Part shown: piece after piece, positions 8,931 to 62,524 of the stretch
Layout of the letters: every line of letters begins with the position of its first letter
How positions within the stretch are numbered: the first letter of the stretch is position 1
DNA from: Candidatus Binatia bacterium
GTDB taxonomy: Bacteria > Desulfobacterota > Binatia > Bin18
Direction: 5' to 3'
Length of the DNA stretch: 64,000 bases
Assembly (NCBI GenBank): GCA_963666315.2
Contig: CAXXHG010000043.1
Span: forward strand, 1 to 64,000
Program-made: the position numbers and the translations under genes
The notes under the pieces: model-generated
Told to the model about the DNA's origin: nothing
Database searches by the model: none
What the model saw: only the letters and a program-made list of their open reading frames with translations

Positions 8931-10028
8931 ATGGCCAATGATCGAATTTTTTCCGCAGACTCTCATACCATGGAGCCGGCAGATCTGTGGGTACAGCGTG
9001 TTGACAGCGGCTTCCGTGACCGGGCCCCGCGGGTCATTAAAGATTACCAAGACAACAAGGGCAGCTTCTTTATTGCCGAAGGGCTGATGCCGTTCCCCAT
9101 CGGTGGTGGGTTTGCGGCAGGCAAAGACCCCAAAGAGCTCGCCACCAATCAAAACGTCGGATACGAAGCAGCCCGGCCCAGCGGTTGGGACCCAGCGGAA
9201 CGGCTCAAAGATCAGGATATCGACGGGGTCGAAGGCGAAGTCCTGTATACCACGCTCGGTATGTTTCTCTTTCATCTCAAAGACGCCGACCTGCAGTGGG
9301 GGTGCTTTCACGCCTATAACGATTGGATTGCCGAGTTTAGCAGCTACGCGCCGCAGCGGCTCATTGGTCTCGGCCTGATCGCCATGCAGAACGTCGAGGA
9401 AGCCGTTCGCGAGCTGCAGCGTATTGCGAAGAAGGGGCTGCGTGGGGCAATGATCAATGCCGCCTCACCAGGGGATTTGCCCTATAGCGATACCTATTAT
9501 GATTCGTTCTGAGCTGCAGCCCAAGATCTGAACCTGCCGATGAGTCTGCATATTCTGACGGGCAAGCAAAACATTCAGCTCAAAAAAGGCCGGGTAGCCT
9601 CCAATATGTCGATTATTCACGAAGTCCAAAACTCACTGACCGACCTTATTTATAATGGCGTGTGCGAACGCTTTCCACGGCTCAAGCTCGTCTCGGCTGA
9701 AAATGATATTGGCTGGATCGCGCATTACCTGAATCGCCTGGATATCTCGTATGAAACTCTGAAGTATGTCGATCCCACGCCCAATACGCTGCTCCCCAGC
9801 GAGTATTTCAAACGCCAGGTGTATGCCACGTTCCAAGACGACCGGCCTGGGGTCCTGACCTATGAGTTCGCCGGTGAGAATAATCTGATGTGGGCATCAG
9901 ACTTCCCGCACCGTGCCTCCACCTGGCCGCGTTCGCGCCAGGTTGTGGAGCAAAATTTTGCGGGCATTCCCGCACAGGTGAAACGGAAGATCACCTATGA
10001 CAATGCGCGGCGTTTATACGGATTCTAA
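8931..10028 (+). pseudogene. Amidohydrolase_2 family gene with in-frame TGA
   Basis: ORFs 8931-9512 and 9540-10028 are in the same frame. The sequence reads YYDSF*AAAQDLNLPMSLH, with TGA (9510-9512) at the usually conserved Trp. SADSH and WASDFPH motifs are intact. Confidence 0.8.
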
Positions 10029-10333: not shown

Positions 10334-11548
10334 TTAAGCCAAAATATCTTTCTCTCGTAACGCTGCTACTTCCTCCTGACTCAAGCCCACAATCTCAGTC
10401 AGGATGGCGTCCGTATCCCGGCCAAGACACGGTGCTGGCCGCTGGATTTTGCATGGCGTACGGGACATTGTCCACGGCACACCCATGTGGCGGCGCTTAC
10501 CGACTTCCGGGTGTTCAAGTTCAACAAAATAATCCCGCGATGCAACATGCGGACTGTTGATCATGTCAATCGCATCCAGTGCGGGATAGGCAGGGATACT
10601 CGCCTGCTGCAGGCTTTCCGTCACCTCATCTGCCGTGCGTTCCTGTGTCCAAGCAGTCACAATCTCTTCAAGCACAACCTCGTTTTCTTTACGCACCGAT
10701 AGCGAGGCAAAGCGTGCATCCGAAGCCAGCTCAGGCTGGTCCATCACTGCGCACAAGCGCTGCCATTCGGCGTCGTCTCGTACAGACAGGCTGACCCAGC
10801 GATCTTCGCCTTTACACCGAAACACCCCGTGTGGAGCCATGTATGGATCACGGTTGCCCCGACGCTCAGGCTGGGTCTTATTCATGCTGTAGTCCATAAC
10901 CGCTTCGGGCAACAGCATAATGGCGGCCTCCCATTGCGAAAGGTCAATATACTGCCCCTGCCCGGTCTTCTCTCGGTGGAGTAAGGCAGCCATAACCGCA
11001 AAAGAGGCATGCACCCCGCCATTGGGGTCGCCGTAAGAGAAACCGGCCATCATCGGCTCTCCGCCGACATAGCCTGTCAGCGAAGACAGGCCGCTTTGAG
11101 CGACCTGGGGCGGGCCGTAGGACACAAAGTCCTTTTCCGGTCCGCTGGTCCCATAACCCGGCAAGGAGACCATGATGATATCGGATTTGACCTGTCGCAA
11201 CTCGTCATACCCGAGGCCGAGCTTTTCCATCACGCCCGAAGCAAAGTTATTCATCACAATATCGCTCTTCTCGATAAGCGTCTTGGCGATAGCAATTGCT
11301 TCCGGTGCTTTGAGATCAAGCGTGATCGAACGTTTGCCCTGATTGTATTGGTTAAAATAGCCAGCCCGGTTCACTCCCGGTTCATTATCTGGCCAGGGTG
11401 GAATGAGACGCGAGGGACACAACCGCTTTGCGCTCTCAATGCGAATCACATCTGCCCCCAGGTGGGCCAGCTGCAGGGCACCATACGGCCCAGCCCAAGC
11501 CCAGCAAAAATCAGCCACACGAATTCCCTCTAATGGTGGTCGGCTCAT
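10334..11548 (-). CDS. Family III (CaiB/BaiF) CoA-transferase, catalytic-Asp subunit
   Basis: PLEGIRVADF, AGPY, NQGKRSITLDL, SYGDP (Asp present), PAPCLG. Confidence 0.92.
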   Translation of the reverse strand: MSRPPLEGIRVADFCWAWAGPYGALQLAHLGADVIRIESAKRLCPSRLIPPWPDNEPGVNRAGYFNQYNQGKRSITLDLKAPEAIAIAKTLIEKSDIVMNNFASGVMEKLGLGYDELRQVKSDIIMVSLPGYGTSGPEKDFVSYGPPQVAQSGLSSLTGYVGGEPMMAGFSYGDPNGGVHASFAVMAALLHREKTGQGQYIDLSQWEAAIMLLPEAVMDYSMNKTQPERRGNRDPYMAPHGVFRCKGEDRWVSLSVRDDAEWQRLCAVMDQPELASDARFASLSVRKENEVVLEEIVTAWTQERTADEVTESLQQASIPAYPALDAIDMINSPHVASRDYFVELEHPEVGKRRHMGVPWTMSRTPCKIQRPAPCLGRDTDAILTEIVGLSQEEVAALREKDILA

Positions 11549-11563
11549 TATGATCTCCTCTTG

Positions 11564-12769
11564 CTATATGGCTCCGGCTTGCTGGAGTGTGGATAGCTCT
11601 TGCTTTGTCATGCCGAGTTCGGCGTACACCTCAGCATTATGTTGGCCAAGGCATGGAGCAGGACGACGGAGTTCCCACGGCGTTTCCGAGCAGATATACG
11701 GTGCGCCGGGATAGGTCAGAGCGCCGGCTTCAGGATGACCCAAGCGAGCGAAGAAGCCTCGGGAGTTCAAGTGTTCTGAGTTGAGCAGAGAGCCCATAGT
11801 TGAAACCGGGGCGAACGGAATGCGCCGTGCCTGAGCCTTGAGATATAGATCTTGCACGGTGTAGTCCTTGACCCAGTCTTGGATGAGCAGTTTGAGCGCG
11901 TCCCAGCTCTCAGCCCGCTTGAGGCGATCCTTGAATATCGGTTCTAGGCCCCACTCCGGATTTCCCATCAGATCAACAAACGACTCCCAGTGGTGTTCTT
12001 CTACGCAGCAGATAAAAATCCAGCCGTCTTTACACTCCATTAAATCAAGCGGTTGGATCGGTTTATTCCCGAGCCGTGAGGCCGCCACACCAGCATAAGA
12101 GGCCATTATGGTGCCAAACTCGGAAATGCCCATCAGGCATTCCTGGACCGAGAATTCAATATGTTGGCCCGCCCCATCTCGCAGTGTGGCAAACAGCGCC
12201 CCAAGCGAAGCCACCGCCGCATGCACCCCAGCGGTAAAACCGGCCTGCTGTCCAAAAGGTTTCAGCGGCGGCAGATGATCGGTCCCCGGCCCAGCGCCGT
12301 TTAGAAAGCATAGGCCACCGGCATTCCACAGGGTCAGGTCTGAGGCCTGATAGTTCGTATGCGGCCCGTTCAAGCCAAAGGGCGCGATTGAGGTCATAAC
12401 TAAACCCGGATTGATCTGCGCAAGCTGGTCATAGACCAAGCCGGCAGCGGATATCTGTGTCGGATGGACATTGTGGATGAGCAGGTCTACGTTTTTCACT
12501 AAGCGCTGGAAGACGTCCTGACCTTTGGTGTTTTCAAGGTCGAGCGTGATACCGCGTTTATTGGTGTTGAGGAAAAGAAACAGCCCACTCTTTTCGGGGT
12601 GCGGTCTTCCGCCAGGAAACGGGCCACGTTGGCGGGCCGGGTCCCCACCGTCCGGCGGTTCAATCTTAATGACCTCAGCTCCCATGTCGGCCATCAGCTT
12701 CGTGGCATACGAAGCCGCGACCATATCTCCACACTCAAGAATCCGAAAGCCTGATAAGGCGCTAGGCAT
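11564..12769 (-). CDS. Family III CoA-transferase, subunit apparently lacking the catalytic Asp
   Basis: ALSGFRILE, NTNKRGITLDL, PAPCLGQH; QQAGFTAG at the position of the catalytic Asp. Confidence 0.9.
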   Translation of the reverse strand: MPSALSGFRILECGDMVAASYATKLMADMGAEVIKIEPPDGGDPARQRGPFPGGRPHPEKSGLFLFLNTNKRGITLDLENTKGQDVFQRLVKNVDLLIHNVHPTQISAAGLVYDQLAQINPGLVMTSIAPFGLNGPHTNYQASDLTLWNAGGLCFLNGAGPGTDHLPPLKPFGQQAGFTAGVHAAVASLGALFATLRDGAGQHIEFSVQECLMGISEFGTIMASYAGVAASRLGNKPIQPLDLMECKDGWIFICCVEEHHWESFVDLMGNPEWGLEPIFKDRLKRAESWDALKLLIQDWVKDYTVQDLYLKAQARRIPFAPVSTMGSLLNSEHLNSRGFFARLGHPEAGALTYPGAPYICSETPWELRRPAPCLGQHNAEVYAELGMTKQELSTLQQAGAI

Positions 12770-12888
12770 AGCCCCTCCCTTTTCGTACTGCTGGACATAT
12801 CCGGCGTAGTGAAACCGAACTCTAGTGGGCCGTTTGTGTCACGTCAAGCTTGACTCCTGTCGCAGCACTCAGTACTCGTAGCTCGGCT

Positions 12889-13164
12889 ATGGACCTCATT
12901 GAGATTTACCTCCGTGTCGAGCGCGAAGATATTGCGCTCATCAAGTTCATTATTGAATCCTACGAAGAGTTCGGCATCGTGCGAACGATAGACCGCAAAA
13001 AGGCCATTATCGTGATTCTGGTCGTCCCGGATTATATTGATCACGCCTGGGCAGCGCTCGAATCTCTGCGCGAACACATAGACTGGCACGAAGTTCCCCG
13101 CCCAACCGAGCATGACGATTGGCTAATGGAAAAGATGCATCCTGAGGACAAAAACGAGTTCTAG
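12889..13164 (+). CDS. DUF4911-like small protein
   Basis: YLRVEREDIALIKFIIESYEEFGIVRTID pattern typical of this family. Confidence 0.75.
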   Translation: MDLIEIYLRVEREDIALIKFIIESYEEFGIVRTIDRKKAIIVILVVPDYIDHAWAALESLREHIDWHEVPRPTEHDDWLMEKMHPEDKNEF

Positions 13165-13176
13165 GACCAGTGTCAG

Positions 13177-13203
13177 ACTCCACCAACTCCACCAACTCAA
13201 TCA
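13177..13203 (+). repeat. 9-bp tandem repeat (ACTCCACCA x2 plus degenerate ACTCAATCA)
   Basis: Directly visible in the intergenic region before the Cas4-like pair. Confidence 0.6.
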
Positions 13204-13221
13204 TCCCATACCGTCTACATT

Positions 13222-13476
13222 ATGGCCAAACGCACCGACTGGGTGACCGCGACCGAGATTGCGACCTATGTCTATTGTCAGAAGTCGTGGCGGCTGACCC
13301 ATGGGCTGAAAATACCTCCAGGCAATATGCGCGCACTCAAGCACGGCACGGCCAAACATGCGGCGTGGCAAAAGGTTGAACTATTTACCTCGTGGCTTAC
13401 AAGAGCCGCGTGGGTGTTGGCTAGTGTCACGATAGCATTGCTCCTCCTGCGCTTCTTCTTATTGGGATGGTTGTGA
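13222..13476 (+). CDS. Cas4-like N-terminal segment (first Fe-S Cys) with C-terminal TM helix
   Basis: VTATEIATYVYCQKSW...HGTAKH matches the Cas4/PD-(D/E)XK N-terminal motif; followed by hydrophobic AAWVLASVTIALLLLRFFLLGWL. Confidence 0.7.
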   Translation: MAKRTDWVTATEIATYVYCQKSWRLTHGLKIPPGNMRALKHGTAKHAAWQKVELFTSWLTRAAWVLASVTIALLLLRFFLLGWL

Positions 13477-13931
13477 TGGATATCCTTAGTCTGTCCGTCT
13501 TGGTCTTGGTCTTTGCTCTCATATGGCGACGCAAGGCGGGCTTTGGGTACGGAAAGACCATCAGTCACGATAACGTCCGCCTGTCCTCAGAACGGTATAT
13601 GCTTCGCGGCAAACCGGATCGCATCGTGCAACGTGGCAGATATTTTATCCCGGAAGAGAAAAAGTCAGGCCTGAGACCGACTGAGAGTTATCAAGCCCAA
13701 CTCGGCCTATATCTCATTTTGATCGAAGAGGAGTATGGGGTGCGCCCGCCGTATGGATTCCTCGTCCTCGGGGACGGCAGACACGTAAAGGTGAAAAACA
13801 CGCGCAGGCTGCGGTCCCTGGTCATCGTTAGTGCGGAGCGCATACGAGAACATCGCTACTGGCTCGACGAACCCCTCCCTCCTCCCTCTACTCCAGCGAA
13901 ATGCCGAAACTGCGAGCAGCGCTCGGTATGA
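13476..13931 (+). CDS. Cas4-like PD-(D/E)XK nuclease core with N-terminal TM helix; TGA at expected last Cys
   Basis: LRGKPD, PEEKK, QAQLGLY (QhxxY), C-terminal CRNCEQRSV*; TGATG overlap with upstream gene. Confidence 0.8.
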   Translation: MDILSLSVLVLVFALIWRRKAGFGYGKTISHDNVRLSSERYMLRGKPDRIVQRGRYFIPEEKKSGLRPTESYQAQLGLYLILIEEEYGVRPPYGFLVLGDGRHVKVKNTRRLRSLVIVSAERIREHRYWLDEPLPPPSTPAKCRNCEQRSV

Positions 13932-14000
13932 CCTTGTCACGTATTGAGCGGGATAGGCCCAACAAGAGGACGACCACACAGGGCTATCCCTCCTCCACAC

Positions 14001-15212
14001 TTACACTGCCTCTTTCTCCCGAAACCGGGCAATATCCTCCCACGAGTAACCCGCTTCCAGCAAAACCTCTTCACTATGCTGGCCCAATTCAGGCGGCGGG
14101 TTTGAGGTATCGAGCGGAGTATCACTAAGAGTGATAGGAGTGCCGACTACCCGAACTTTTCCAATCTGAGGATGGTCCATTTCCGTGATATAGCCGTTCG
14201 CTAGGGCTTGCTCGCTGTTGAGAATATCTTGATAATCCTGAACCGGCGTAGCCAGAACGTCGACACCAGTCAAAATTTCCATCCACTCAGCCGTGGTCTT
14301 GGTCGGAAAGACTTCATCCAGGAGTTGCTCGATTTTGACGCCACGGAAGTTACGGATCACATTGTCACTATACTCGGGCTCAGACACAACATGTTCAATG
14401 CCCAGCACCCAACAGAAGTCCGGCCAACGTTTGTCATCAACACCGGCCAAACAGATCCAGCCATCTTGGGTTTGAAAAGACCCCCAGACGCCCTGCAGAA
14501 ATTGATGTCCACGTCCGGCCTTGCGCGTCTCGACCCCACTCACTGAGGTAAAGTTGATTTCCATCGGCTGCATTGCGATAACCGTACCGTAGATACACGC
14601 ATCAACCTTTTGGCCCTTGCCGGTCTTCTCGCGGGCATACAGCGCGGCCAGAATTCCGCTCATGAGCATAAAGGCTCCAGAATGATCGGCAACCAGACTG
14701 CCACACGGTAGCGGCCGATCATCCGGCATACCATTTTTGGCCATAATGCCGCCTGCCGCTTGGGCTAACGTGTCACGACTCGGCCGTGTCACCCACGGTC
14801 CCAGCGGCCCCCACGATGATCCTGCCGCATAAATAAGACGTGGGTTCTGTTTCGATAGTTTTTCATAGCTAAAGCCGCGCCGATCCAGCACGCCAGGTCG
14901 GTAATTACTCAGCAACACATCGGCTGAATCGAGCAGGCGAGATAAAATTTCTTTCGCCTCAGGTCTCTTCAAATCAAGCGTCAGGCTACGTTTGCCGCGG
15001 TTCATAGCCAGGAAGTAGTGGCTGAAATCCGCGTTTTTCGCGTCCTCCCCCGCGATGAGCTTGACTACCAGAAAGCGGCTCAAATCTCCAACATCACGCA
15101 TTTCAACTTTGATGACATCCGCGCCCATATCAGCCAGGAACAGTCCAGCGTATGGCCCTTGGATCTCCTGAGCAATTTCGATAACTTTTACTCCGTCGAG
15201 TGGTCCCGGCAT
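14001..15212 (-). CDS. Family III CoA-transferase
   Basis: GPLDGVKVIE, NRGKRSLTLDL, LVADH (Asp), PPELGQHS. Confidence 0.92.
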   Translation of the reverse strand: MPGPLDGVKVIEIAQEIQGPYAGLFLADMGADVIKVEMRDVGDLSRFLVVKLIAGEDAKNADFSHYFLAMNRGKRSLTLDLKRPEAKEILSRLLDSADVLLSNYRPGVLDRRGFSYEKLSKQNPRLIYAAGSSWGPLGPWVTRPSRDTLAQAAGGIMAKNGMPDDRPLPCGSLVADHSGAFMLMSGILAALYAREKTGKGQKVDACIYGTVIAMQPMEINFTSVSGVETRKAGRGHQFLQGVWGSFQTQDGWICLAGVDDKRWPDFCWVLGIEHVVSEPEYSDNVIRNFRGVKIEQLLDEVFPTKTTAEWMEILTGVDVLATPVQDYQDILNSEQALANGYITEMDHPQIGKVRVVGTPITLSDTPLDTSNPPPELGQHSEEVLLEAGYSWEDIARFREKEAV

Positions 15213-58315: not shown

Positions 58316-58585
58316 CCGGACACCCTCCCTGGACTGTATTCTATCGCCGTAAGGACCAAAAGCGAGCAAACATGAGCAAAACAAGCGCGGTCTCCTCTTC
58401 CCTTTCTTTATCGACCGGGAGGGCAAGATTTATAATTCCGACAGCCAACACGGCACGGGCTGGTCCACCTCCTTTCCTCATGCAGGATGCAGCTGGAACA
58501 ACGAGAGAGACACTTCCTGCTTGGACTTCGAACCCTACTGGAAATACCCCGCAGGTAGTAATATAGTGATCGTCCTTAGTTCATC

Positions 58586-58665
58586 TGTCTGAGGAGCGTT
58601 GCGACGGCCTAAGCATAACCCACCGGCCTGCCAGGCTCAGACACTACGCATCAGAACGGCGCTCG
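58586..58665 (+). ncRNA. SAH riboswitch aptamer
   Basis: P1 TGTCTGAG/CTCAGACA; conserved GAGGAGCGTTGCGAC and GCCAGGCTC; pseudoknot strand AACGGCGCTC (58655-58664); directly upstream of metH. Confidence 0.88.
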
Positions 58666-58689
58666 CTTTCCTGTTTAATAATGTAAACC

Positions 58690-58740: not shown

Positions 58741-58777
58741 CCTTGTTAAATGTTTGGAACAGGACAGGTGTTTCCAT

Positions 58778-61700
58778 ATGGGCGAGAAACAGAGAAATAA
58801 TGGCCAGGCACAACTCGAAGCCCTGCTTCAGGAACGCATTCTATTGCTCGACGGGGCCATGGGCACCATGATCCAGTCCTACCAGCTGGAAGAAGCCGAT
58901 TACCGTGGTGAACGCTTTGCCGATCACCCGTGTGATGTGAAAGGCAATAACGACCTGCTTACCTTAACTCAGCCGGACATCATCAAAGCTATTCACACCG
59001 CCTACTTTGATGCGGGCGCTGATCTTGTCGGGACCAATACCTTCAACTCGACTTCCATCGCCATGGCCGACTACCGGATGGAAGACTTGGTGTATGAACT
59101 CAATACAGCCGGTGCCGCCCTGGCGCGTGCGGTAGCGGATGATTTCGAGGAGAAAAACGCGGCCCGGCCACGCTTCGTGGTCGGTACGCTGGGCCCAACC
59201 AATCGCACTGCCTCGATCTCACCGGATGTGAATAGCCCCGGTTTTCGGAATGTCACCTATGAAGAACTGGTCGAGGCTTATAGTGAGGCGATCCGAGGCT
59301 TGGTGGACGGCGGGGCCGACATATTACTCGTCGAGACCATCTTCGATACCCTCAATGCCAAGGCGGCCCTATACGCTATCGATCAGTACTTCGATGAGCA
59401 TCAAGTGCAGCTACCGATCATGATATCCGGCACCATTACAGACCAATCCGGCCGGACCTTGACCGGTCAAACCACAGAGGCCTTCTGGAATTCGGTCAGA
59501 CATGCGAATCCACTGACGATAGGCTTGAACTGTGCCTTAGGTCCTCAGGATTTACGACAATATATTGAAGATCTTTCGGTCGTTTCGTCGATTTATATTT
59601 CGGCCCATCCGAATGCCGGACTGCCGAATGAATTCGGTGGTTATGATCTCGGTGCCGGCCCGATGGCCGAGCATATTAAAGAGTGGGCCGAATCCGGCCT
59701 TTTGAACATTGTCGGTGGCTGTTGCGGTACCACACCTGAGCATATCGCTGCCATAGGCAAGGTCATTCAAAACATATCCCCACGCAAGCGACCGGAGATC
59801 CCGCCCTACCAGCGCCTGAGTGGACTCGAAGCCTTCAATATCACACCGGATACCAACTTTGTGAATGTCGGTGAACGCACCAATGTGGCCGGATCGCCCA
59901 GATTTTTAAAACTCGTGAAAGAAGACCAGGATCTGGAAGCGGCCGTAGCGGTTGCCCGCCAACAGGTGGAGAACGGCGCGCAGGTGATCGACATCTGCAT
60001 GGACGAAGGCATGCTCGATTCCGAACAACTCATGGCCGACTTTTTAAAACTCATTGCGAGTGAACCGGACATCTCGCGCGTCCCGGTGATGATCGATTCC
60101 TCTAAGTGGACGGTGATCGAGGCGGGGCTGCGGTGCGTGCAAGGAAAATGCATCGTGAATTCGATCTCCTTGAAGGAGGGTGAAGAAAAATTCATTGCAT
60201 ACGCCAAACTCATTAAACGCTATGGGGCTGCCATGGTCGTTATGGCCTTTGATGAGCAGGGCCAAGCGGATACGACCGATCGTCGGTTAGAGGTGTGCCA
60301 GCGATCGTATGACATCCTGGTGAATCAAGTCGGTTTTTTACCGGAAGACATTATCTTTGATCCGAATATCCTTACCGTCGCGACCGGCATGGAAGAGCAT
60401 AATAACTATGCGGTCTCCTTCGTCGAGGCGACGCGACTCATTAAAGAACACCTGCCGCATGCACTCGTCAGTGGCGGATTGAGTAATGTGTCGTTCTCCT
60501 TTCGCGGCAATAACCCGGTGCGTGAAGCCATGCATGCCGCGTTTCTGTATCACGCTATCCAGGCCGGTATGGACATGGGCATCGTCAATGCGGGCCAACT
60601 CGGCATCTATGATGAGATCCCCAAAGATCTGCTCGGATATATTGAAGATGTATTACTCAATCGACGCGATGATGCCACTGATCGATTAGTGGAATTTGCC
60701 GAGACGGTCACAGGTGGGGGCAAGAAAGAAAAGAAAGTCGATCTTGAATGGCGAAAAGGTCCTGTCCGGGAACGTCTCTCGCATGCATTGGTGAAAGGCA
60801 TAGCCAATTACATTGAAGAAGATACAGAAGAGGCACGCCAACAATCTGATCGCGCGTTGCATGTCATCGAAGGACCCCTCATGGACGGCATGAACGTCGT
60901 CGGTGATCTCTTTGGTGCCGGCAAGATGTTTTTACCCCAGGTGGTAAAAAGTGCGCGTGTCATGAAAAAAGCGGTGGCCTATCTCCTGCCTTATATCGAG
61001 GCGGAAAAAGGCGACGGTGAAATAAAAAGCAACGGCAAGATCGTCATGGCGACAGTGAAAGGTGACGTGCATGACATCGGCAAGAATATTGTCGGGGTCG
61101 TATTGCAATGTAATAACTTCGAAGTCATAGACCTCGGCGTCATGGTACCGGCACAAACCATACTCGACACCGCCCGCGAACAAAAGGCCGACATCATCGG
61201 CTTAAGTGGACTCATTACGCCATCACTCGATGAGATGGTACATGTGGCAAAAGAAATGCAGCGCCAGGACTTTGCCCTACCGCTTATGATCGGTGGTGCA
61301 ACGACGTCGCGCGCGCATACCGCAGTAAAGATCGACTCTAGTTATGAACATCCGGTGATTCATGTAAAAGATGCCTCGCGTGCAGTCGGGATATCAACGC
61401 GTCTGTTAAACGTTGATATGAAAAAAGAACTCGCCGCAGAGATCCAGCAAGACTACGACATAGTACGTGAACGGCATGCGGCAAAACAAGCAAAAACGAC
61501 CTGGCTCACACTAGCCCAAGCCCGAGCGAATCGTGTGGCCATCGATTGGGATAACTATACACCACCCGTACCGCATACACTGGGCATAGAAATTTTCGAT
61601 GATTACCCGTTAGGTGAGTTGGCCGAGTATTTTGACTGGACACCGTTCTTTATTGCATGGGAACTTGCAGGTAAATTTCCACGCATCTTATGTGACGACG

Positions 61701-62524
61701 TGGTCGGTCAGGAAGCAACCAAACTCTACGACGATGCGCGCCAGATGCTCGCAAAAATCATTGCTGAGAAATGGTTTAGCGCAAAAGGCATATTCGGTTT
61801 ATTCCCGGCAAATTCGATCGGCCATGACGATATTATTGTCCATGGATTTACAGCGGCCGCGGGGACAGGGATGTACAAAAGCGGCGGAGGTATACTCACT
61901 ACATTGCATACCGTCCGACAACAAACACCAAAAGCAGCCGGTCAACCCAACTATGCACTGGCGGATTTCATTGCGCCGGAAGAAACGCATATACATGATT
62001 ACATCGGTGCGTTTGCGGTTGCAGCCGGTTTCGGCATGCAAGACAAATTGGATCAGTTTGAAAACGATCATGATGACTATAGTGCCATTATGCTTAAAGC
62101 CTTAGCAGATCGTTTTGCCGAGGCGTTTGCCGAACGCTTACACCAGCGTATCCGAAAAGAGTACTGGGGTTATGCCCCGGATGAAGGGTTCGATAATGAG
62201 GCTTTGATCACAGAAAAATACCAGGGCATCCGCCCTGCCCCCGGATATCCGGCTTGCCCGGACCATACCGAGAAGCCATTGATCTGGGATCTGCTTAAAG
62301 TCGAAGAAAATACGGGCATAACTTTGACGGAATCCTACGCCATGTTCCCCACAGCAGCAGTCAGCGGCTTCTACTTCTCACATCCGGAATCGCGATATTT
62401 TGGGGTGGGAAAGATAAATAAAGACCAAGTCAGAGATTACGCCCACAGAAAGAGCATGACTATGGCTCAAATTGAGAGATGGCTTTCTCCCAATTTGGGG
62501 TATGATCCCGACGGTGTTGGTTAA
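58778..62524 (+). CDS. metH: Cobalamin-dependent methionine synthase
   Basis: [34 protein letters not shown] (DxH), [20 protein letters not shown]. Confidence 0.98.

Follow-up and report, generated by a model that had tools for sequence, protein, structure and literature searches.

When the N-terminal module and the catalytic core of a nuclease lie on two neighbouring genes, is the break between them an error, or do the genes encode two subunits of one enzyme? This question is raised by two short open reading frames (ORFs) in a 64,000-nucleotide (nt) stretch of DNA, positions 1 to 64,000 of contig CAXXHG010000043.1 (assembly GCA_963666315.2) from Candidatus Binatia bacterium, which we call the window. 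An initial annotation, made from the sequence alone, described them as a CRISPR-independent Cas4-like nuclease split into two membrane-anchored polypeptides. We consider it probable that ORF1 and ORF2 are two subunits of one Cas4-family PD-(D/E)xK nuclease and that they derive from an ancestral gene bearing a membrane hairpin, which was cut in the outer loop of that hairpin. The features of the pair are listed below, with lengths in amino acids (aa), putative transmembrane helices as TM1 and TM2, candidate ligands of an iron-sulphur cluster as Fe-S ligands, and A1 and A4 denoting alignments of ORF2.

13222..13476 (+): ORF1, 84 aa; Cas4-type N-terminal module, then hydrophobic helix TM1; stop codon TGA at 13474-13476
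13276..13278 (+): codon of Cys19 of ORF1, the sole N-terminal Fe-S ligand candidate; invariant in 20 of 20 ORF1 homologs
13345..13359 (+): codons of Gly42-Thr-Ala-Lys-His46, the G...H motif of ORF1; Gly42 invariant, His46 nearly invariant
13405..13473 (+): TM1, the C-terminal hydrophobic helix of ORF1 (about residues 62-84); Kyte-Doolittle 19-residue mean 2.29
13467..13476 (+): ORF1/ORF2 junction; start of ORF2 at ATG 13467 (10-nt overlap) or ATG 13476 (TGATG, 1-nt overlap)
13467..13931 (+): ORF2, 154 aa (151 aa from ATG 13476); TM2, then Cas4 PD-(D/E)xK core
13470..13526 (+): TM2, the N-terminal hydrophobic helix of ORF2; Kyte-Doolittle 19-residue mean 2.75; RRK directly after
13617..13619 (+): codon of Asp51 (GKPD, then RIV), catalytic motif II; invariant in A1 and A4
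13653..13664 (+): Glu63-Glu64-Lys65-Lys66, the ExK catalytic motif III; Glu64 and Lys66 invariant and Glu63 nearly so in A4, Glu63 and Lys66 invariant in A1
13698..13712 (+): Gln78...Tyr82 (QLGLY), the QhxxY motif; Gln78 and Tyr82 invariant in A1 and A4
13902..13913 (+): Cys146-Arg-Asn-Cys149, the two remaining C-terminal Fe-S cysteines; both cysteines invariant in A1 and A4
13911..13931 (+): site of an 18-nt in-frame deletion; six codons gone (GQRQNC in the nearest relatives), including that of the last Fe-S cysteine

Two ORFs and the Cas4 motifs divided between them

The N-terminal sequence of ORF1 is MAKRTDWVTATEIATYVYC(19)QKSWRL...KHG(42)TAKH(46), with Cys19 lying within TEIATYVYC, and its C-terminal end is the hydrophobic stretch AAWVLASVTIALLLLRFFLLGWL. 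ORF2, whose reading frame is -1 relative to that of ORF1, opens with MVVMDILSLSVLVLVFALIW and continues with the basic stretch RRK. Between the two possible starts, ATG 13467 is probably the one used, because the relative P0005 opens with MVVTDIL. All of the features named in the initial annotation, namely the N-terminal Cys motif and hydrophobic helix of ORF1, the helix, PD, ExK, QhxxY and CxxC of ORF2, and the coupling TGATG, are found in the sequence. A promoter and terminator scan of 12700-14100 gave no signal exceeding shuffled expectation, and RNA run X20 contains only a small share (0.18) of the sequence words sampled.

By its sequence ORF2 belongs to the Cas4 nuclease family, and it lies outside any CRISPR context. 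It scores 31.4 bits against Pfam PF01930 Cas_Cas4, over the cut-off of 22.7 (30.5 bits in the whole-genome family search, likewise over it), and 56.3 bits against TIGR00372 cas4, under the equivalog cut-off of 65. PADLOC Cas4 models match it as well, down to E 6e-18, as do the profiles of the PDB entries 8d3l, 4r5q and 7mi4. In alignment A4, which holds 22 sequences, residues D51, E64, K66, Q78, Y82, C146 and C149 are invariant. The matches to the Pfam, TIGR00372 and PADLOC models begin only at about profile position 50, so ORF2 lacks the N-terminal Cys/His module.

The elements that ORF2 lacks relative to a full Cas4 are those that ORF1 carries: Cys19, Trp23, Gly42 and His46. Across the 20 homologs of alignment A3, M1, A10, C19, W23 and G42 of ORF1 are invariant, and E12, I13, R24, L39 and H46 nearly so. 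His46 probably corresponds to the histidine that binds metal in the active site of Cas4; a role of His62 is described for SSO0001 (PMC13621843). The best family match of ORF1 itself is weak, to the N-terminal part of PDDEXK_1 in Pfam (E 0.017), and no PADLOC or NCBIfam model matches it. This want of a significant match would suit a reading in which ORF2 is a self-sufficient membrane-anchored nuclease and ORF1 an unrelated small membrane protein, such as a regulator or an immunity partner. We regard that as very unlikely: the Cas4 models leave the N-terminal module of ORF2 unmatched, ORF1 bears exactly the invariant Cys and G...H of such a module, and fused relatives, described below, put an ORF1-like module at the position of the Cas4 N terminus.

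No match to the Cas1 (PF01867) or Cas2 (PF09827) families was found in the whole 4.99-Mb assembly, which is 92% complete, and the window holds no CRISPR match in Rfam and no array-like tandem repeat. Among the scanned neighbours of the related loci, too, we saw no Cas1, Cas2 or array. The claim of CRISPR independence thus holds genome-wide for cas1 and cas2, at that completeness, and within the window for an array. Where sources name the ORF2 genes (about 165 aa), they label them CRISPR-associated Cas4, which is misleading in CRISPR-free genomes; the partners of about 80 aa encoded by ORF1 are covered by no family model in Pfam, NCBIfam or PADLOC.

Conservation of the split and its single-chain counterparts

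A word-indexed search with ORF2 returned 52 proteins, mostly of 150-170 aa, and a hydrophobic helix opens all 20 aligned ORF2 homologs. Among contigs sampled at one genome per species, 32 loci encode an ORF2 relative. They derive from metagenome-assembled genomes of Candidatus Binatia, from Planctomycetota (Tautonia, Gemmata, a Tundrisphaera plasmid, Gemmataceae and others) and from Anaerolineae (L053 and L054). By tblastn with ORF1, an ORF1-like gene lies directly upstream of the ORF2 relative in 29 of the 32, the two-gene arrangement that the initial annotation had proposed to look for in other genomes; the three other loci consist of two ORF2 fragments (L049 and L051) and a distant, long RecB-like protein (L055). 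Twenty-five of the 29 pairs are intact, several of them on closed chromosomes or from cultured strains. The four damaged pairs are L024, with one in-frame stop, L037, with two stops and a frameshift, and L035 and L052, both frameshifted.

The junction between the genes is tight and varied in these 25 intact relatives and the window (26 pairs). The ORFs overlap by 1 nt in 18 pairs (TGATG or TAATG) and by 4 nt in four (ATGA or GTGA); one pair abuts in the same frame (TAGATG), and three have a gap of 3-6 nt. ORF1 ends in TGA, TAA or TAG, all three being represented, and an ORF2 start codon of its own is present at the junction of each pair. Junctions so varied and three types of stop could not all be bridged by one recoding event or one reassigned codon. 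Synthesis of a single polypeptide by programmed -1 frameshifting or stop-codon readthrough would suit ORFs that overlap or abut and a family in which single-chain relatives exist. It would, however, have to differ between members, with a change of frame where the ORFs overlap by 1 or 4 nt and readthrough, of TAG or TAA, where they share a frame (L040, L046 and L053), and no common slippery motif is evident in the junction sequences. With three stop codons in use and a start for every ORF2, we find recoding extremely improbable.

The hydrophobic segments on either side of the break are as constant as the gene order. Among the intact relatives (25 pairs) the 19-residue Kyte-Doolittle mean runs from 1.85 to 3.08 for TM1 and from 2.20 to 3.24 for TM2, both segments keep their position in 25 of 25, and only a few residues lie outside the helices at the break. 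The description of two translationally coupled genes with one hydrophobic helix on each side of the break is therefore borne out by sequence and hydropathy, and the segments that the initial annotation took for membrane helices are conserved, as judged by hydropathy. Both genes are also under purifying selection: for 36 pairs within the core Binatia group, the median ratio of nonsynonymous to synonymous substitution rates (dN/dS) is 0.19 for ORF1 and 0.095 for ORF2.

A sequencing or assembly frameshift within one gene might be suspected, given that the DNA comes from a metagenome-type assembly in 47 contigs. The same layout nevertheless recurs in 25 intact loci from three phyla, including several closed chromosomes and cultured strains, and two further studies yield contigs that match the window at this point: record 4 of run X4 is identical to it over 13320-13739, junction included, and record 10 of X6, from a third study, spans the junction. 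We treat such an error as practically negligible. The conserved layout and helices, the low dN/dS and the agreeing contigs together indicate that the split is an old, conserved and selected gene arrangement, neither an error nor a fresh frameshift, as the initial annotation had argued from the helices alone.

Some relatives carry in one chain what, on our reading, was one enzyme in the ancestor. A profile search with the ORF2 alignment against 1.84 billion representatives gave 3218 matches at E <= 1e-3, 1249 at E <= 1e-10 and 124 at E <= 1e-30. By rough sorting, 100 of the best 150 of the 3218 are split-like, with one helix and then the core, at a median length of 175 aa. An hmmsearch with an ORF1 profile identified nine of the best 150 as single chains in which an ORF1-like module is followed by two hydrophobic helices and the core (P0150, P0151, P0134, P0186, P0182, P0172, P0078, P0069 and P0080); sorting of the same 150 by regular expression and hydropathy had under-counted them (three) and was superseded. 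The initial annotation had counted single fused homologs against its reading; such homologs do exist among the relatives, with the hairpin kept, but they speak for the two halves forming one enzyme and not against it. Two odd single records stand apart from these, on short contigs or without context: P0045 (196 aa) has the N-terminal Cys module joined directly to TM2, without the G..H helix and without TM1, and in P0074 (220 aa) an ORF1-like module comes after a truncated core, an order that may stem from tandem copies.

Split and fused forms interleave in a maximum-likelihood tree of 48 sequences, hand-chosen from the matches and rooted at the midpoint, from which the direction of change is not inferable. 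The window's clade is sister to the fused P0078 and P0069 (support 99/91) inside a clade of split Planctomycete forms, and in the second main clade six fused forms stand among split forms from Chloroflexota. There has therefore been more than one event of fission or fusion, and the interleaved, hairpin-bearing single chains argue that the two halves, ORF1 and ORF2, belong to one enzyme. The AlphaFold2 model of the fused P0151 (pLDDT 86.9, pTM 0.82) places a helical hairpin (39-84, 88-119) ahead of a beta-sheet core. Its top Foldseek match is the type I-C Cas4 8d3l (E 1e-8, TMt 0.71, 272 columns), and further matches are Dna2, Cas4-Cas1, ACE1 and SSO0001. The predicted Cas4 fold is thus that of a fused relative and not of the window pair itself.

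Counter-evidence and decay of the pair

Several observations, on the models as well as on the window copy, weigh against the reading of two subunits forming one nuclease. Assembly of the subunits, their topology and their activity are all inferred. Searched against the PDB, the ORF1 profile finds no Cas4, and its matches are designed coiled-coil proteins, reached through the hydrophobic helix. A profile of the fused forms aligns the N-terminal Cys of the ORF1 type with a Cys of the Cas4 proteins 8d3l and 4r5q, and the G..H with EGQHLH of 8d3l and RGRILH of 4r5q, in weak, sub-threshold stretches. The membrane helices were judged by hydropathy and by the AlphaFold model of the fused relative, which leaves the calls on the pair resting on hydropathy, and in the Binatia group two arginines confine the hydrophobic part of TM1 to only about 15 residues. 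Prediction of the ORF1-ORF2 complex gave an ipSAE of 0.50 (runs 0.50, 0.49 and 0.51; best of three controls 0.00), with at least 91% of contacts agreeing between runs and a partner pLDDT of at least 67. This passes a mark that 116 of 157 solved complexes and 2 of 215 mismatched pairs also pass, in a weak band, at 0.60 or under, that contains 18 of the 157 solved complexes and both of the passing mismatches. The prediction lends weak support to pairing, and the pass may stem from likeness to solved single-chain Cas4.

The window copy itself is short of one cysteine. Its ORF2 ends in CRNCEQRSV*, whereas relatives end in ...CxxCxQRxxCxQR.. (CxxCx5C), so that the window keeps one cysteine in ORF1 and two in ORF2, and intact relatives have one and three. 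The EQRSV* left at the end matches EQRLV* of relatives. A MAFFT DNA alignment of the window with L024, L037 and L025 (A2) shows a 10-column gap at this site; read together with the protein alignment A1, it fits best with an 18-nt in-frame deletion between the imperfect direct repeats AACTGCGGCCAGCGG and AACTGTGAGCAGCGG (L024). The deletion is not an assembly error, because contigs from the other studies carry the same form: an X4 contig is identical to the window over 13753-13982, and an X6 contig that covers 13150-13974 differs by 11 substitutions but has no indel at the deletion site. TM2 is also four residues shorter in the window: the 12 nt missing behind 13485 are present in the X6 contig, in a second X4 contig and in P0003. 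These alignments make the window copy a derived allele, from which two deletions, both in frame, have taken four residues of TM2 and six residues that include the last Fe-S Cys. The four-Cys cluster completed in trans, as the initial annotation had it, therefore finds its ligands in intact relatives but not in the window. According to PMC13621843, which cites Rentz et al. 2025, the solo-Cas4 of Methanosarcina mazei stayed active in a mutant that lacks the cluster, so that loss of one ligand need not abolish catalysis. We put the odds that the 3-Cys window copy is still active as roughly even.

The pair is also unevenly kept. In a class sample of 401 genomes, with a close ORF2 relative defined by E <= 1e-10, ORF2 is matched in 18 of the 27 other genomes of the window's genus, in none of 27 from other genera of the family and in none of 346 from other families. 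A separate, phylum-wide search of 401 genomes with ORF2 gave only distant, ordinary Cas4 (best E 1.4e-16) and hence no context. The pair is missing from the remaining nine genomes of the genus, and three of the 18 that have it carry stops. Two of five inspected genomes without the pair keep deletion remnants, in each case right after the DUF4911 gene: the last 35 or so codons of ORF2 in L063 (about 1780-1880) and the first 16 or so codons of ORF1 in L065 (about 1836-1890). That these remnants differ points to independent deletions. The window's two nearest relatives, L024 and L037, are among the broken pairs, and dN/dS against L024 is raised, to 0.43 for ORF1 and 0.21 for ORF2. Within the genus, then, the pair is a dispensable accessory gene set that several lineages have lost. 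Its presence in Planctomycetota and Chloroflexota, together with its restriction to one genus of the class, suggests that an ancestor of the genus acquired it horizontally and that it has been lost repeatedly since. As to genomic context, the neighbours in Binatia are ordinary metabolic genes (CoA-transferases and DUF4911) that offer no functional hint, and five of the 11 Planctomycete loci scanned have no recognisable mobile or defence gene within about 4 kb, so that a mobile or defence context is found in only about half.

Much of this would follow if the window copy were a decaying, non-functional remnant of a real family, with frames still open only because the decay is recent. The deletions in TM2 and at the last Fe-S cysteine, the two nearest relatives as pseudogenes, the stops, losses and remnants in the genus and the rise in dN/dS over the core group all fit, as does the amidohydrolase gene nearby in the window (8931-10028), which is in two pieces as well. 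Against decay, both deletions are in frame and neither ORF has a stop or a frameshift; the 3-Cys allele has persisted, being common to the X6 strain, with its 11 differences over 13150-13974, and to X4; dN/dS is still well under 1; and the cluster-free M. mazei enzyme is reported to be active (PMC13621843). We give the remnant reading serious, though less than even, weight. For the family as a whole, two subunits of one nuclease remains the reading that we prefer, and the significance of the window pair within it is tempered by the derived 3-Cys allele and by its dispensability in the genus.

Proposed membrane assembly, known relatives and possible role

Under the two-subunit reading, an ancestral Cas4-type gene would have gained a two-helix membrane hairpin between its N-terminal Cys/His module and its catalytic core and would then have been cut within the tiny outer loop of the hairpin. 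ORF1 would supply the N-terminal Fe-S cysteine and probably a histidine metal ligand, and ORF2 the Asp, ExK, QxxxY and C-terminal cysteines. TM1 and TM2 would pair in the inner membrane, with the soluble parts meeting at its cytoplasmic face to rebuild the enzyme; its metal site would be a composite of His from ORF1 with Asp, Glu and Lys from ORF2, and its cluster a composite of Cys from both. Tight translational coupling would match the amounts of the subunits. We infer this physical assembly of the two halves, and we place both soluble parts in the cytoplasm because RRK follows TM2, the tails on the outer side would be negligible, and Fe-S clusters are assembled in the cytoplasm. Such a pair would amount to a natural split-enzyme system for the assembly of an Fe-S nuclease.

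With the CRISPR Cas4 proteins (PF01930/TIGR00372; 8D3L, Pcal_0546 4R5Q, SSO0001 4IC1 and the Cas4-Cas1 fusion 7MI4) the pair shares the PD-(D/E)xK core with D, ExK and QhxxY, and intact relatives share one N-terminal Cys and a C-terminal CxxCx5C; the model of the fused P0151 fits 8d3l over its full length. It differs from them in lacking cas1, cas2 and an array, in a TIGR00372 score under the cut-off, and in having a two-helix hydrophobic hairpin inserted after the N-terminal module, with the gene cut inside the hairpin. Whereas Cas4 is usually a single polypeptide of about 160-220 aa, module and core lie on two ORFs, a stop codon between them, in the window and in its intact relatives (25 pairs). 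In AddB, AdnAB, Dna2 and EXO5 the Fe-S nuclease domains have the same fold, as judged by the Foldseek matches, and a cluster held by one distal and three proximal cysteines. Unlike the pair, these proteins are soluble, being either large helicase-nucleases that contain the domain or single chains.

Cas4 proteins outside CRISPR loci have precedents. The solo-Cas4 genes, and those on mobile genetic elements (MGE-Cas4), share with the pair a position outside CRISPR loci, in some cases on mobile elements, and a patchy distribution in bacteria (Hudaiberdiev et al. 2017, PMC5704561); the hairpin and the two-gene form are not described in the main text of that paper, where the terms "transmembrane" and "split" each occur 0 times. 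A Cas4-like nuclease limits RSF1010 in Synechococcus elongatus (PMC10653904), an instance of non-CRISPR Cas4 acting against incoming DNA; the available account presents that protein as single-gene and mentions no membrane anchor, in which it differs from the pair. ACE1, an Argonaute-associated Cas4-family protein by the titles of PDB entries 9IAB and 9IAC, recalls the Tundrisphaera plasmid pair, which adjoins TIR/SEFIR and Piwi genes. By those titles, however, ACE1 is single-gene with no membrane anchor mentioned, and its structural likeness is weaker (TM about 0.42). In the literature searched, which covered full text with subscription journals and supplements outside its scope, we found no membrane-anchored or split Cas4 described. 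The present analysis contributes the Binatia and Planctomycete branch, its mobile-element context, the interleaving of fused and split forms in the tree, the decay of the pair and the 3-Cys allele.

The context that bears on function comes from Planctomycetes, where six of the 11 loci scanned over about 4 kb adjoin mobile-element or defence genes, L043 and L050 lying on one and the same plasmid. A TrwC relaxase is found near the pair in L038, L040 and L043/L050, ArdC in L040 and L042, a tyrosine integrase in L039 and L043, and TIR/SEFIR with Piwi genes in L043/L050. The plasmid concerned is the 52-kb pTA3_3 of Tundrisphaera, which holds two copies of a block (L043 6422-10077 and L050 4603-8258); in each, the split pair stands beside a TIR/SEFIR gene and a Piwi-domain gene, which together resemble a defence pair of the short prokaryotic Argonaute (pAgo) type, with the TrwC relaxase and tyrosine integrase nearby. 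The pAgo neighbourhood is confined to this one plasmid, in its two copies, and to the surroundings of the fragment L049, by blastp clustering with the Piwi gene of L043.

This mobile-element context fits a cargo gene for defence or exclusion, and the relaxase, ArdC, integrase and pAgo genes near the Planctomycete copies suggest a link to DNA entry or exclusion. A membrane-held exonuclease might be expected to work on DNA ends where they enter the cell, and we tentatively propose, as possible though rather doubtful, that the nuclease acts on DNA ends there, for instance during phage injection, conjugation or uptake. The role in defence or processing of incoming DNA, raised in the initial annotation, accordingly gains contextual support only, from the neighbours in those six of 11 loci; it is still a putative role, for a pair repeatedly lost in the genus. 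Less likely again is a more specific form of the idea, in which the enzyme would be a membrane gatekeeper, a Cas4-type exonuclease at the inner-membrane face that destroys or trims the ends of entering DNA, carried by Planctomycete plasmids and integrative elements as defence or exclusion cargo, and active only once its helices pair. Were that true, the pair would contain a built-in assembly switch that fused and split lineages have repeatedly toggled. Solo-Cas4 genes are widespread and their roles are largely unexplained; a branch of Cas4 tethered through an inserted helical hairpin, whether as one chain or as two coupled genes, would point to the inner side of the membrane as a site of action.

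The Binatia-type loci are syntenic, with the pair set among CoA-transferase genes. In the window, three paralogous family III CoA-transferase genes on the minus strand flank it (10334-11548, 11564-12769 and 14001-15212). Directly upstream of ORF1 lies a DUF4911 gene (PF16256, E 1.4e-15; 12850-13164, +), which is kept in 15 Binatia-type sources, the window included. We considered DUF4911 as a part of the system and rejected it, since it is present in five of five genus genomes without the pair and absent from non-Binatia loci; it is a native neighbour.

Farther from the pair, the Amidohydro_2-family gene at 8931-10028 (+) appears to be split into ORFs of 193 aa and 162 aa, only the second of which matches the C-terminal half of PF04909. 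Its syntenic relatives are single genes of 365-400 aa (L024 1351-2553, L025 1586-2722 and L037 1235-2332), and the split copy is a probable pseudogene or assembly frameshift. At the other end of the window, an S-adenosylhomocysteine (SAH) riboswitch (RF01057) at 58585-58671 (+) scores 59 bits against a gathering score of 37. The gene that follows, some 80 nt downstream, encodes a B12-dependent methionine synthase (58754-62524, 1256 aa) with Met_synt_B12, S-methyl_trans, Pterin_bind and B12-binding domains.

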